Origin: Candidatus Magasanikiibacteriota bacterium | GTDB taxonomy: Bacteria > Patescibacteriota > Patescibacteriia > Magasanikbacterales > UBA922 | Reading direction: 5' to 3' | Assembly (NCBI GenBank): GCA_012800155.1 | Contig: JAAZJX010000012.1 | Span: 1-32,089, forward strand | DNA: 32,089 bases | Shown: in pieces, positions 1 to 28,151 of the stretch | Numbering within the stretch: position 1 is the stretch's first letter | Layout: each line of letters begins with the position of its first letter | Translations under genes and position numbers: made by a program | The notes under the pieces: model-generated | What the model saw: only the letters and a program-made list of their open reading frames with translations | What the model was told of the DNA's origin: nothing | Database searches by the model: none

Positions 1-45
1 TATAAAAAGCCCGAGTGCCTGCCTGCCGGTAGGCAGGGCGGAATT
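1..45 (+). pseudogene. Partial duplicate of the tRNA-Leu 5' end, interrupted by a 20-bp palindrome
   Basis: 1-17 = 111-127 and 38-45 = 128-135; 18-37 is extra sequence. Confidence 0.8.
18..37. repeat. 20-bp GC-rich palindromic micro-element CCTGCCTGCCGGTAGGCAGG
   Basis: Self-complementary except one G/T pair; clean insertion relative to the intact tRNA. Confidence 0.85.
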
Positions 46-118
46 ATTCCGCCTCTTAAAAATAAAAACCTATTTTCTTGAAAAAGAAATAATATAAATA
101 AACAAAAAATTATAAAAA

Positions 119-8310: not shown

Positions 8311-9609
8311 TTAAGGTTTTAATCTATTAATCGTTCTAGGAAAAGGAATGCACTCACGAATATGTTCTACACCAGTCATCCAGCGTACCATTCTCTCTAC
8401 ACCAATTCCAAAACCAGAATGTGGAACAGAACCATATTTTCGTAAATCTAAATACCAAGAATATTCTTTTTCACTCATACCACTTTGTTTAATTCTAGAA
8501 AGAAGTAAATCAAAATCATCTTCACGCTGAGATCCACCAATTATTTCTCCAGCACCTTCAATTCCAATTAAATCATCATTCAAAACTCTTGAATCATCTT
8601 CTGGATCAATCTTCATATAAAATGGTTTGATATTTTTATCCCATTTTTCAATAAATACTGGCACTTCAGAATCTTGAGTCAATAATCCTTCATCATCATT
8701 ACCTAAATCTTCACCGTATTTAATATCTGAACCCAAACTTTGCAATTTATTAATTGCTTCTTTGTAAGTTAATCTAGTAAAAGACTTTTCCAAAACTTTT
8801 TTAAGTGGTTCAGTATTTCTCTCCAAAATTCCAAACTCAACTGTACATTCAACTAAACATTTTTTAATAATATATTTTATCAAACCCTCTTGAATTTTTA
8901 AATTTTCCTCATGTTCAATAAAAGCTCCCTCAGCATCCATCATCCAAAATTCTGATAAATGGCGCTTAGTTTTTGATTTTTCAGCTCTAAAGACTGGTCC
9001 AAAATCATAACAACGGCCTACACTTGCAATCGCTGCCTCAATATATAATTGACCAGATTGAGATAAATAAGCTATTCCTTCGTCAAAATATGGTACGGGA
9101 AACAAAGTAGTAGTCCCTTCACAAGCATTAGGAGTAAAAATTGGTGCATCTACTTTTATAAAACCTTCTTGATGTAAATACTCATTAATAGCAGTAATTA
9201 TTACATCACGCACTCGTAAAATTGCCCATTGTTTTTTGGATCGTAACCATAAATGACGATTATCCATAAGAAATTCTGGACCATGTTCTTTTGGACTAAT
9301 TGGATAATCTATTGCTTGTTGAATTAATTTAAAATTTTTAACTTGTAACTCAAAAACTCCTTCTTGTTTTGGATGTTTACTTACTATTCCAGAAATTTCA
9401 ACTGAAGATTCTTGAGTGGTTTTTTCTACCTGTTCCCACATTTCTTCAGAAATATCATTTTTAGAAACTACACATTGAATAAATCCTGATCCATCGCGTA
9501 ACTCTAAAAAAGTGATTGAGCCACTAGAGCGTTTATGATTAAGCCAACCTTTTAAAATCACTTCTTGATTAACAAATTGAGTTAAATCTTTAATAAATGT
9601 TTGTGACAT
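8311..9609 (-). CDS. asnS: Asparagine--tRNA ligase
   Basis: LRDGSG, RHLWLRS, YLSQSGQLY, FRAEKSKTKRHLSEFWM, YGSVPHSGFG. Confidence 0.97.
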   Translation of the reverse strand: MSQTFIKDLTQFVNQEVILKGWLNHKRSSGSITFLELRDGSGFIQCVVSKNDISEEMWEQVEKTTQESSVEISGIVSKHPKQEGVFELQVKNFKLIQQAIDYPISPKEHGPEFLMDNRHLWLRSKKQWAILRVRDVIITAINEYLHQEGFIKVDAPIFTPNACEGTTTLFPVPYFDEGIAYLSQSGQLYIEAAIASVGRCYDFGPVFRAEKSKTKRHLSEFWMMDAEGAFIEHEENLKIQEGLIKYIIKKCLVECTVEFGILERNTEPLKKVLEKSFTRLTYKEAINKLQSLGSDIKYGEDLGNDDEGLLTQDSEVPVFIEKWDKNIKPFYMKIDPEDDSRVLNDDLIGIEGAGEIIGGSQREDDFDLLLSRIKQSGMSEKEYSWYLDLRKYGSVPHSGFGIGVERMVRWMTGVEHIRECIPFPRTINRLKP

Positions 9610-9696
9610 AAAATTTTTATTAAAACTTAGTTAAATAATATCAAATTTAGCTAAAATATACAAGTTTTAAGACTTTTGGCATTGATCTTAAAAGTA

Positions 9697-9725
9697 TTGA
9701 CAAAATTCAAAAAATGTAATATATT
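9697..9725 (+). promoter_or_regulatory. sigma70 promoter for the small ORF
   Basis: TTGACA-17-TATATT. Confidence 0.6.
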
Positions 9726-9802
9726 AAACTTGTTTTATATAAAATACCTAACATTATAAAATAACATATTTTATAATATTGGCTATTTTATAGGAGAAAA
9801 AA

Positions 9803-9961
9803 ATGAGCCAAACTGGATTGATTATTTTATCCTTTACAATCCTAATATTATTAATAACTTACAAAATAAAGCCATTGATATTAAAAATGGTCATTCAATT
9901 CGGAGTCCTTGCCTTAATATTAGGATTAACACTCTTTTTCTACTTTCAGTCATTAAAGTAG
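9803..9961 (+). CDS. 52-aa two-TM membrane protein (absent from the ORF track)
   Basis: MSQTGLIILSFTILILLITYKIKPLILKMVIQFGVLALILGLTLFFYFQSLK; AGGAGA SD, upstream promoter, downstream hairpins. Confidence 0.72.
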   Translation: MSQTGLIILSFTILILLITYKIKPLILKMVIQFGVLALILGLTLFFYFQSLK

Positions 9962-9968
9962 TAGCCAA

Positions 9969-9993
9969 GGGGGAGGAATGGAGAACCTCCCCC
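9969..9993. other. GC-rich hairpin after the small ORF
   Basis: GGGGGAGG-9nt-CCTCCCCC. Confidence 0.65.
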
Positions 9994-10053
9994 AAACCCC
10001 ATCATAAAAAGTGAATTAAATCACTCTTTCAAATTATTAAAATAATTAAAAAT

Positions 10054-10086
10054 ATATAAACCTGTATTGTTAATACAGGTTTATAT
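10054..10086. terminator. Bidirectional terminator
   Basis: Perfect 15-bp arms ATATAAACCTGTATT-GTT-AATACAGGTTTATAT with A/T-rich flanks, between convergent units. Confidence 0.75.
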
Positions 10087-10124
10087 TTTATTTTATCAAT
10101 TATTCCTTTTATTAATTATTAAAA

Positions 10125-10168
10125 TCAAACCTACAACTTTATATTAACAATATATTGTTCTTGCAATT
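10125..10168 (-). pseudogene. tRNA-Asn relic A
   Basis: 34/44 identity (1 gap) to the intact tRNA-Asn; 7 of 10 differences are GC-to-AT transitions. Confidence 0.65.
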
Positions 10169-10223
10169 ATTAGTTCAAAGTTAATTCATCTTAAACAAAA
10201 ATTACTTTAACTACCAAAATAAA

Positions 10224-10383
10224 CTCAAACCTACAATAACCGCGTTAACCTGTCTACCAATCGCCTTGCTCTCCCGGTAGGGCTCGAACCTACAACATCT
10301 GCATTAACAGTGCAGTGTTCTACCAATTGAACTACAGGAGAGCATGACGGACAGACAGCGCATTATTACACCAACTCAACTAC
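10224..10383 (-). pseudogene. tRNA-Asn relic B, split at the anticodon loop (10224-10249 + 10357-10383)
   Basis: Joined halves align ungapped 41/53 to the intact tRNA-Asn and restore the CT-GTT-AA loop. Confidence 0.75.
10269..10341 (-). tRNA. tRNA-Asn(GTT), CCA not encoded
   Basis: TCTCCTG/CGGGAGA+G; D arm GTTC/GAAC; CTGCA-CTGTTAA-TGCAG; GTAGG-TTCGAGC-CCTAC. Confidence 0.97.
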
Positions 10384-10385
10384 TC

Positions 10386-10416
10386 AAAATAAAATACCCA
10401 CCGATCGGTGGGTATT
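10386..10416 (-). terminator. Attenuator terminator upstream of tRNA-Asn
   Basis: Perfect 24-bp palindrome AATACCCACCGATCGGTGGGTATT (10393-10416) running into TTATTTT on minus. Confidence 0.8.
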
Positions 10417-10433
10417 ATCTAAAAAAATAAAAA

Positions 10434-10511
10434 CTATACCACACCATCGGGAGATAACAAATTATTATTGTTATTTAATTGTCGCAAAGACAATTTTGAA
10501 TATAGTTTCAT
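10434..10511 (-). CDS. Putative poly-Asn leader peptide MKLYSKLSLRQLNNNNNLLSPDGVV
   Basis: 25 codons; AAT AAC AAT AAT AAT at 10461-10475; 3' end is complementary to the terminator 5' arm. Confidence 0.72.
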   Translation of the reverse strand: MKLYSKLSLRQLNNNNNLLSPDGVV

Positions 10512-10519
10512 ATATTTTT

Positions 10520-10547
10520 ATTTTAGCACTTAAATTTTAATTGTCAA
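10520..10547 (-). promoter_or_regulatory. sigma70 promoter for the leader peptide/tRNA-Asn unit
   Basis: TTGACA-16-TAAAAT with extended -10 TG; ATG 8 nt after the -10 box. Confidence 0.75.
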
Positions 10548-10601
10548 ATATAACTGTTGATAAATAAAAATTACAAAAAAATATTATTATAAAATAAAAA
10601 A

Positions 10602-11225
10602 TCAAGAAAAAACAAAAGAACCCCAATCATTAATTTTTTTTCCAATTTGAAACACTAAAAATTTATAAATTAATCTATGCAATTTTTCATACTCTCCTTT
10701 TTCAAATTTCAAATTAAAAATCAATTGCCAATCTCCTTCTAATAAAATAGTCAAATCTTTTTTCAACTCCCTACTCGTTTTTTCTACAGAAACAATATCT
10801 AAACCAAGATAAAATAATAATTTCACCACAAAACCATCCACCATAACTAATTTTATCTCTGAACAATTATTCACAAATTTCAACCAACTTTTTAATAATA
10901 TAAAAATTCTTTTATCTTTTTCTTCTATTTCCAATATTTTATTTAATAAACTTACTATAAACCCAGCTATCAAACTTTTTTGTAAATCTTGTCTAATATT
11001 TATAAAATAATCTATACTCTGCACTGCACCTAAATGATTCAATTCTTTACCTTTAATAATTTCTAATTCAACATAGGAAAACGGCTCTAAATGAGCCGAA
11101 TTTTTACTAATTATTTTTTTTACTCCCTTAGCCAAAACTTCCATTTTTCCTTTTTCTAAAGTTAAAAAAGAAATAATTTGATCTGATTCACGAAAATCAC
11201 GGCGTGCTAAAATTATCGCTTGCAT
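10602..11225 (-). CDS. recO: DNA repair protein RecO (short)
   Basis: AIILARRDFRESDQIISFLT...GKMEVLAKGVKK...LEPF OB-fold signature. Confidence 0.93.
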   Translation of the reverse strand: MQAIILARRDFRESDQIISFLTLEKGKMEVLAKGVKKIISKNSAHLEPFSYVELEIIKGKELNHLGAVQSIDYFINIRQDLQKSLIAGFIVSLLNKILEIEEKDKRIFILLKSWLKFVNNCSEIKLVMVDGFVVKLLFYLGLDIVSVEKTSRELKKDLTILLEGDWQLIFNLKFEKGEYEKLHRLIYKFLVFQIGKKINDWGSFVFS

Positions 11226-11229
11226 ATAT

Positions 11230-11592
11230 TTATTTGTCTAAATAAGTTTGCAAAATAAGCATGGCAGCTTTTTCATCCAAACTAACTTCTCCTCCCATTT
11301 CCATCGCTTCTGCCGTAGTCAATCTCTCATCCGCAAAATCAACTTCTACCTCTGTTTGTTTTTTTAATTCCTCAGCAAATTTTCTAATTCGTTTAGTATT
11401 TTCATTTTCTCCCATATTTTCTAAACCAAGAGGAAGACCAAAAATAACTTTATCTATTTTTTCTTTCTTGATAAGTTTTACTAATTGATCCAAAGAATCT
11501 ACTAAACCATAAGGTAAAATAATATCCAATCCAGTTTGCATCCAAGCTAAACCAATTCTTTTTTTTCCATAATCAACTCCAAGTATATTCAT
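11230..11592 (-). CDS. yqgF: YqgF/RuvX RNase H-fold nuclease (start moved to MNILG)
   Basis: ILGVDYGKKRIGLA, GLP, DERLTT, AAMLILQTYL. Confidence 0.95.
   Translation of the reverse strand: MNILGVDYGKKRIGLAWMQTGLDIILPYGLVDSLDQLVKLIKKEKIDKVIFGLPLGLENMGENENTKRIRKFAEELKKQTEVEVDFADERLTTAEAMEMGGEVSLDEKAAMLILQTYLDK

Positions 11593-26646: not shown

Positions 26647-28151
<1,505 letters not shown>

Follow-up and report, generated by a model that had tools for sequence, protein, structure and literature searches.

An intact tRNA-Asn gene nested in the anticodon loop of a divergent, decayed tRNA-Asn copy in a Magasanikbacteria genome

We analysed the tRNA-Asn locus of Candidatus Magasanikiibacteriota bacterium (Patescibacteriota, Magasanikbacterales) in a window of 32,089 nucleotides (nt), which is the whole 32-kb contig JAAZJX010000012.1 (contig C22) of assembly GCA_012800155.1, a metagenome bin of 0.91 Mb in 100 contigs with roughly 28% G+C. 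An intact tRNA-Asn gene lies here within a 107-bp insert in the anticodon of a second, decayed tRNA-Asn copy. The unit is located on the minus strand between recO (10602–11225, RecO_N and RecO_C domains) upstream and asnS, encoding asparaginyl-tRNA synthetase (AsnRS; 8311–9609, Pfam tRNA-synt_2 at 1e-70 and an anticodon-binding OB fold), downstream, both on the same strand, and no open reading frame (ORF) of at least 80 amino acids (aa) is present between 9610 and 10601. In transcription order, the unit starts with a promoter-like site found by consensus scan (10520–10547; TTGACA, 16 nt, TAAAAT, with a TG, 11 of 12 consensus positions), followed by a leader-peptide ORF whose 25 codons include an unbroken run of five for Asn (10434–10511; translated as MKLYSKLSLRQLNNNNNLLSPDGVV and a stop) and by a predicted attenuator terminator hairpin (10393–10416; stem of 10 pairs, five of them GC, tail TTATTTTGAG) with its T-run at 10383–10392. 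Then come the 5' part of the outer pseudo-tRNA-Asn, recognised by its in-register match and comprising the D-arm, the 5' strand of the anticodon stem and the first loop bases (10357–10383), the insert (10250–10356), and the outer 3' part with the rest of the anticodon loop, the 3' strand of the anticodon stem, the variable region, the 5' strand of the T-stem and the T-loop (10224–10249). The insert itself consists of a 5' flank that holds TGACG and GCA (10342–10356), the intact inner tRNA-Asn(GUU) gene without an encoded CCA (10269–10341), and a 3' flank overlapped by a palindrome-like arm, CCTGTCTACC (10250–10268). A third decayed tRNA-Asn body, uninterrupted and of the inner type, follows at 10125–10168, 55 nt downstream of the outer 3' half, and a bidirectional terminator-like hairpin detected by terminator scan closes the unit at 10054–10086. 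Three terminator-like sites occur in the region where 0.2 are expected, and Tandem Repeats Finder reported nothing at the locus.

The inner gene was called as Asn(gtt) by ARAGORN (10268–10341, minus strand) and matched Rfam RF00005 (10269–10341, minus strand) with 70.1 bits at a threshold of 29. It is the sole uninterrupted tRNA-Asn gene among the 43 ARAGORN calls and 44 Rfam matches in the genome. A perfect 8-bp inverted repeat (10267–10274 and 10337–10344) spans its ends, and in the sense of the tRNA the insert ends continue the acceptor stem by three pairs (leader UGC with trailer GCA), then by four further pairs and finally by six to seven pairs of the outer arms. The insert flanks of 15–19 nt per side form an imperfect inverted repeat. 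Folding of the 107-nt insert gave −44.6 kcal/mol (z = −4.6), a stability reached by none of 200 shuffled sequences. No group I intron model was found in the insert by an Rfam search of 9500–10700 at E-values up to 1, which returned only the tRNA and two weak, unrelated matches. The 107-nt window whose removal rejoins the outer halves can slide by −2 to 0 positions; the insertion point therefore lies between tRNA nt 33 and 34 at one extreme and between nt 35 and 36 at the other, inside the anticodon.

Similarity of the flanking halves to the inner gene is high and collinear. The left flank (10224–10249) is identical to inner-gene positions 10283–10308 at 21 of 26 nt and the right flank (10357–10383) to 10309–10335 at 20 of 27 nt, so that the two halves jointly match at 41 of 53 positions (77%) and are contiguous in the register of the tRNA, as an earlier note on this DNA, made from its letters alone, had reported for an ungapped alignment. 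When each half of the intact gene was slid over every genome position on both strands (about 1.8 million), the left flank outscored every other non-self site, all of which reached 19/26 at most, and the right flank was the joint-best non-self match at 20/27, tied with one other tRNA. This confirmed that the outer halves are tRNA-Asn-derived sequence beyond the genome background. The tRNA-Asn body that the note saw in the rejoined halves is not a complete one. The halves resemble the inner gene no further than the D-stem on one side and the T-loop on the other, neither an acceptor stem nor a 3' strand of the T-stem is recognisable, and ARAGORN detected no tRNA-Asn in three rejoined constructs under default, -ps and -ps80 settings. 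Without an acceptor stem, the outer gene would be non-functional even if the insert were spliced from its RNA.

Assembly support was evaluated with Logan contigs instead of raw reads, and some of the sequencing runs may represent the source sample. At least 99% of the sampled words from 9900–10700 were present in 20 runs from 17 studies (all words in 19 of the runs), and in four runs from four studies a single contig each spanned 9900–10700 with no differences, gaps or joints. The bin is fragmented, and 18 of the 43 tRNA genes in the tRNA list lie within 300 nt of a contig end, which suggests that tRNA-linked repeats break the assembly and could be held to favour an assembly artefact at this locus. 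Misassembly, which the earlier note had named as an outcome that would overturn its reading, is nevertheless discounted by the identical spanning contigs from four studies, and the distribution of matches across the genome speaks against chance resemblance; we give the combined possibility of artefact or coincidence next to no weight.

The outer copy differs from the inner gene at 12 positions, and the direction of change is balanced (5:5 between G/C and A/T). Seven of the 12 differences fall in stems, where four of the five affected pairs can still form, two of them through changes on both sides. These two-sided changes are located in the D-stem (GTTG/TAAT) and the anticodon stem (ATGCG/CGCGG) of the outer copy; its D-stem retains four of four pairs if G-T pairs are counted. 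Among 18 distinct tRNA-Asn sequences, the outer copy is most similar to that of a relative of the same order (L039, 43/53), a closer match than the 41/53 to its own inner gene, and its mismatches to this relative go 7:1 from G/C to A/T, the pattern to be expected of a dead gene that was once richer in G/C. By sequence comparison, these features support the proposal of the earlier note that the outer copy was a distinct, formerly functional allele, as opposed to a decayed duplicate of the inner gene.

Retention of the outer halves and arms for a role in RNA, either as a processing stem of the precursor or as a tRNA-like operator of the synthetase, was considered as an explanation of their persistence. 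A 178-nt segment folds at −55.1 kcal/mol (z = −2.9) into one helix in which the leader-trailer pairing, the arms and finally the outer anticodon stem are stacked on the acceptor stem, and the contigs from the four studies agree fully in this sequence. Identity among samples of one species says nothing about constraint, however, and the 7:1 bias of mismatches to the best-matching tRNA is that of decay. Other pseudo-copies in this genome are fragments of varied extent, no such stem is kept in the tRNA-Asn loci of relatives, and we therefore regard a retained RNA function as very improbable.

The third copy (10125–10168) is identical to the inner gene at 33 of 45 positions with one gap, and its alignment score of 43 was not reached by any of 300 shuffles (maximum 28). 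In the comparison with the tRNA-Asn set it was closest to the inner gene (34/45), and all seven of its composition-changing mismatches are toward A/T. Since the outer copy is nearest to relative L039 and the third copy nearest to the inner gene, two allele types have lived at this locus. An indication that alleles have been displaced at such a locus elsewhere comes from relative L090, in which the remnant behind the intact tRNA-Asn, a 3' fragment with a hairpin in its T-loop, belongs to another tRNA-Asn allele.

The Asn-codon leader and terminator look like a leader-peptide attenuator that would control the tRNA gene; by eye, the end of the leader ORF could pair with the 5' arm of the terminator. 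A leader ORF with a run of Asn codons and a terminator precede tRNA-Asn also in relatives L006, L009, L016, L025, L088 and L090 and on one metagenome contig (L195), the ORFs of relatives being read directly from the sequences. This order is kept across several genera and is often followed by asnS. The inner gene shares its promoter-like site, Asn-rich leader ORF and terminator with the outer copy, in agreement with the claim of the earlier note that it stands under the same putative attenuator. The outer 5' part starts directly after the terminator T-run, where the 5' end of tRNA-Asn lies in the relatives, which supports the residency of the outer copy at this place. When metagenomes were scanned once for an exact 32-nt word from the inner gene, contig L195 (231 kb) alone was recovered. 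Its tRNA-Asn is identical to the inner gene at 69 of 73 positions and has an Asn-leader attenuator of its own, and its neighbouring genes have no counterpart here; as it was found by exact match, it is unusable as an argument for horizontal transfer.

The edges of the insert resemble a 20-nt palindrome (consensus CCTGCCTGCCGGCAGGCAGG) that recurs in this genome and occupies 18–37 of the window. There it interrupts, after nt 9, a partial plus-strand copy of tRNA-Leu(caa) made up of an upstream flank and the first 17 nt (1–45). On the plus strand, the left insert edge CCTGTCTACC (10249–10258) matches an arm of the reverse complement of this palindrome at 9 of 10 positions, and the right edge GACAGACAGC (10350–10359), which extends 3 nt into the outer half, matches a palindrome arm at 7 of 10; we reproduced both values, as well as the perfect 8-bp inverted repeat, from the earlier note. 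Four of the 20 palindrome positions in this alignment are bases of the outer tRNA (three in the right arm, one in the left), and the insert arms stand 91 nt apart, unlike the contiguous arms of the 20-nt palindrome family. These edges had led to the proposal that a palindromic micro-element first killed the resident gene and that a replacement was then delivered at the exact centre of the palindrome. The succession of left arm, cargo and right arm has the geometry of a palindrome split at its centre, the 20-nt palindrome occupies anticodon loops of other pseudo-copies, and long palindromes are known break points. Half-sites with at most one mismatch number just 14 in 0.9 Mb, half of them inside full palindromes, and the left edge is one of these 14. 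The second arm fits less well, with its 7/10 match that overlaps tRNA bases and only about 16 of the 20 palindrome positions inside the insert. A search for two exact arms separated by 75–105 nt gave no match in 107 family genomes; the earlier note had suggested looking for further tRNAs centred within this palindrome family. Prior loss of a single-copy tRNA-Asn would moreover be lethal unless a spare copy existed, for which the body at 10125–10168 and an intron-bearing gene on contig C55 are candidates. The proposal is partly supported, mainly by one arm, and we hold the two-step course of events as a whole to be rather doubtful.

Broken tRNA copies are a general feature of this genome, a pattern that the earlier note lacked, as it did the third tRNA-Asn copy and the probable second tRNA-Asn on contig C55. 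Direct-orientation partial self-copies were identified for 14 of the 43 tRNAs, 12 of them within 300 nt of their own tRNA; the partial copies of tRNA-Met and tRNA-Val stand on the ends of other contigs. No inverted copies were found in the scan of tRNA neighbourhoods that yielded 11 of the 14 cases. Most pseudo-copies are interrupted in exact tRNA register by a GC-rich palindrome, with nothing lost or duplicated, and they vary in extent as fragments. The 20-nt palindrome is present in pseudo-copies of tRNA-Leu(caa), tRNA-Lys, tRNA-Gln and tRNA-Leu(taa). A 36-nt imperfect palindrome is inserted between GGTTA and GAGC of the D-loop motif in six copies, all in tRNA orientation and belonging to Ile, Pro, Met and Val pseudo-copies (C94:39–74; C71:11085–11120 and 11327–11362; C57:85–120; C29:293–328 and 400–435), and was detected in none of 100 other family genomes. 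A double hairpin of roughly 30 nt splits the T-loop motif between GTTC and GA in the 3' pseudo-copies of tRNA-Tyr and tRNA-Arg (C5:19906–19935, C29:16284–16315); a similar double hairpin at this motif was seen in relatives of other genera (L077, Gln; L090, Asn). The start of contig C33 (21–90) is the reverse complement of window positions 1–70, and the join is the palindrome-bearing tRNA-Leu(caa) pseudo-copy.

Some pseudo-copies carry an upstream flank and form tandem units (C94, C57/C78, C22/C33 and C55), of which there are three on C55 and at least two on C57. The existence of such palindrome-bearing arrays, together with three units in relative L077, allows for an origin of the Asn locus without any insertion. 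A three-unit tRNA-Asn array with palindromes in its outer units would have been trimmed by two deletions, each starting from the centre of a palindrome, so that the 5' half of the first unit and the 3' half of the third remained around the middle one, and deletion is expected in a reduced, A/T-rich genome. This would require two independent deletions with mirror-image end points, and the outer halves abut in exact register and represent one allele type unlike the gene between them, which would be unexpected under duplication of one gene. We consider such an origin by deletion improbable.

Insertion of hairpins into tRNA-derived sequence extends to other members of the family. Of 100 other family genomes, 54 contain the 20-nt palindrome, each with as many as about 30 copies, compared with 0–1 copies of a reversed control pattern. 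It was located in loops of tRNA pseudo-copies beside the intact gene in three relatives (T-loop of Arg, L070; anticodon loop of Leu, L187; D-loop of Leu, L177), and the combination of pseudo-copy and palindrome was seen in five relatives of other genera (L070, L077, L177, L187 and L069). After rejoining of their flanks, eight of 60 distinct instances of the 20-nt palindrome matched a tRNA at 24 or more of 32 positions, as opposed to none of 150 control sites. In relative L077 (genome G057), three tandem units of 166 nt lie downstream of tRNA-Gln(ctg) at 1440–1930. Every unit has a terminator and comprises a pseudo-tRNA-Gln of nearly full length whose D-, anticodon and T-loops all bear GC-rich hairpins; units one and two are identical. 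These units could be junk or a structured RNA of their own. The 20-nt palindrome also occurs in the loop of a widespread hairpin repeat of the GTCATYCCGAGCG... type (L065, L166, L170, L179, L183 and L191). A general rule that the palindrome always sits in hairpin loops was rejected and is a tendency only, with flanking stems of at least 5 bp at 11 of 59 instances versus 7.5% of 3000 control positions.

A second tRNA locus of this genome, on contig C55 (955–1369, locus L196), is interrupted in the anticodon by a 342-nt group I intron (RF00028, 75.1 bits, E = 2e-19), which was missed by an Rfam search of four loci at E-values up to 0.01 and recovered in a narrower search. ARAGORN read this tRNA as Thr(tgt). 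Group I introns usually end in G, and if this one does, the tRNA is probably, though not conclusively, Asn(GUU), because the mature loop would then give GUU and because in its U1-A72 pair and its G73 it is similar to the tRNA-Asn genes of this genome. Upstream, the flank and 5' exon recur in three tandem pseudo-copies, all of them terminating at the intron site and carrying the 20-nt palindrome between nt 21 and 22, and an 81-aa GIY-YIG ORF is encoded at 396–638 of the same contig. This ORF is one of three small GIY-YIG ORFs in the genome, two of which stand directly beside arrays of pseudo-tRNAs and palindromes (C55 and C29); the proteins beside the arrays, of 73–81 aa, are bare catalytic domains by sequence. 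No REP-type Y1 transposase was detected in the genome. Palindromes interrupt the anticodon loop in pseudo-copies of tRNA-Gln(ttg) on C56 and, in relatives, of tRNA-Leu(caa) (L187) and tRNA-Gln(ctg) (L077), and together with the group I intron they mark the anticodon site as a known insertion target in these bacteria.

As no insert can predate its target, the outer allele is the earlier resident and the inner gene the later arrival. From the nested anatomy, the distinct allele, its place behind the attenuator and the family-wide context, all of them observed, we infer with moderate confidence that the resident tRNA-Asn was broken in its anticodon by a break or an insertion that captured a complete second allele; this confidence extends to the succession of steps, to the break and to the identity of the donor. 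A resident tRNA-Asn(GUU) directly behind the Asn-codon leader attenuator would have been broken between nt 33 and 36, the likeliest trigger being a double-strand break in its anticodon loop, either at a palindrome already lodged there, comparable to those in the Gln and Leu pseudo-copies, or through a nuclease cutting at the site of group I introns. Repair may have copied in an intact tRNA-Asn with a few flanking bases from a donor then located just downstream. The body at 10125–10168 is the candidate donor, and it would have become redundant afterwards and decayed. The inner gene would have inherited the old promoter and Asn attenuator and would now supply tRNA-Asn, its transcript presumably being freed from the precursor by the usual tRNA end-processing enzymes before addition of CCA, while the outer halves, now non-functional, would be drifting toward A/T. 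The event would form part of a general process in this genome and family in which direct pseudo-copies gain GC-rich palindromes in their D-, anticodon and T-loops.

Several observations weigh against this course of events. The flanks of the third copy, the candidate donor, have no similarity to the insert flanks in alignment. Neither a pre-insertion nor a palindrome-only allele was found among the genomes of relatives, none of which is of the same genus; the earlier note had suggested aligning the recO–asnS intervals of relatives to find such alleles. In the closest relative (AsnRS 84% identical), asnS is preceded by an argG-like gene and not by recO, and no tRNA-Asn is present within 1.5 kb. 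Across the relatives, tRNA-Asn stands within 1.5 kb of asnS in four of 29 loci and is nested in none. No second nested case was detected among the 43 tRNAs of this genome or the 79 tRNAs, duplicates counted once, in 195 loci, and the interval 9610–10601, lacking any ORF of at least 80 aa, holds no nuclease gene. Finally, the missing acceptor stem and 3' T-stem strand of the outer copy, beside a core 77% identical to the inner gene, would fit a truncated internal fragment of the kind seen in the other pseudo-copies equally well as a gene that died in place.

Islands and prophages with tyrosine integrases insert in tRNA genes, some of them in the anticodon loop, and bring a copy of the displaced part that keeps the gene whole. 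The Asn locus shares with these islands the anticodon-loop target, the preservation of function by a copy in the insert and a displaced fragment as direct repeat. It differs in its size of 107 bp instead of kilobases, in the absence of an integrase gene from the interval and in a displaced copy that is just 77% identical to the new gene; because the insert carried an entire tRNA, the old gene was displaced in both its halves, unlike in integrase islands. Bacterial tRNA group I introns, such as the one on C55, occupy the same anticodon-loop site and likewise preserve function, but the Asn insert matches no intron model and function was restored by a second gene copy instead of splicing. Small mobile palindromes include REP/BIME elements, Rickettsia palindromic elements, mitochondrial GC clusters and double-hairpin elements. 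The 20-nt palindromes resemble these elements as short GC-rich hairpins with many copies and a patchy, nested distribution in an A/T-rich reduced genome, yet they have no Y1 transposase, are tied to tRNA-derived sequence and are inserted in exact register without target duplication. In T-even phages, the GIY-YIG homing endonuclease SegB is associated with tRNA genes and brings about segmental amplification (PMC13096335). The present genome resembles this system in its tandem repeats of tRNA-containing segments and in the small GIY-YIG genes that adjoin two of the arrays, and a comparable driver is conceivable; it differs in that its 73–81-aa proteins amount to a bare catalytic domain, that none of them is encoded at the Asn locus and that the genome is cellular and not that of a phage.

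tRNA genes commonly pass for the most static part of a bacterial genome. The reduced genome studied here shows turnover of tRNAs, with broken self-copies at one third of the loci (14/43) and palindromes in their loops, and this wider turnover in the family lends the finding an interest beyond the Asn locus itself. Among publications outside subscription journals, to the extent that their text was accessible, we came across no account of tRNA genes nested in one another or of palindrome-bearing tRNA pseudo-copies from this group; the turnover of tRNA loci in the family apparently has not been described. A living tRNA-Asn within the corpse of its predecessor, with the putative amino-acid-sensing attenuator of the latter kept, is a dated and ordered record of allele replacement. 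The locus points to an apparently undescribed, family-wide class of loop-targeting repeats in Patescibacteria and lets one ask, at a defined site, how an essential gene present in single copy withstands targeted insertion. Such scars would explain assembly breaks at tRNAs in these genomes and may mislead tRNA annotation. We further put forward, as an unlikely idea, that in Magasanikbacteria a tRNA with a hairpin-like extended acceptor stem could itself act as a loop insert, a self-rescuing 'selfish tRNA' cassette that lands in the anticodon loop of its own kind, where it would destroy the resident copy and take over its function. If so, such a cassette would be hard to lose and the nested Asn gene would be the first one caught, and palindromes, a group I intron and possibly small GIY-YIG nucleases would all make tRNA genes a permanent target for loop-specific insertion.

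Elsewhere in the window, a 16S rRNA gene is encoded on the minus strand at 26648–28151; with no 23S rRNA gene after it on the contig, it is followed downstream by protein-coding ORFs on the minus strand.

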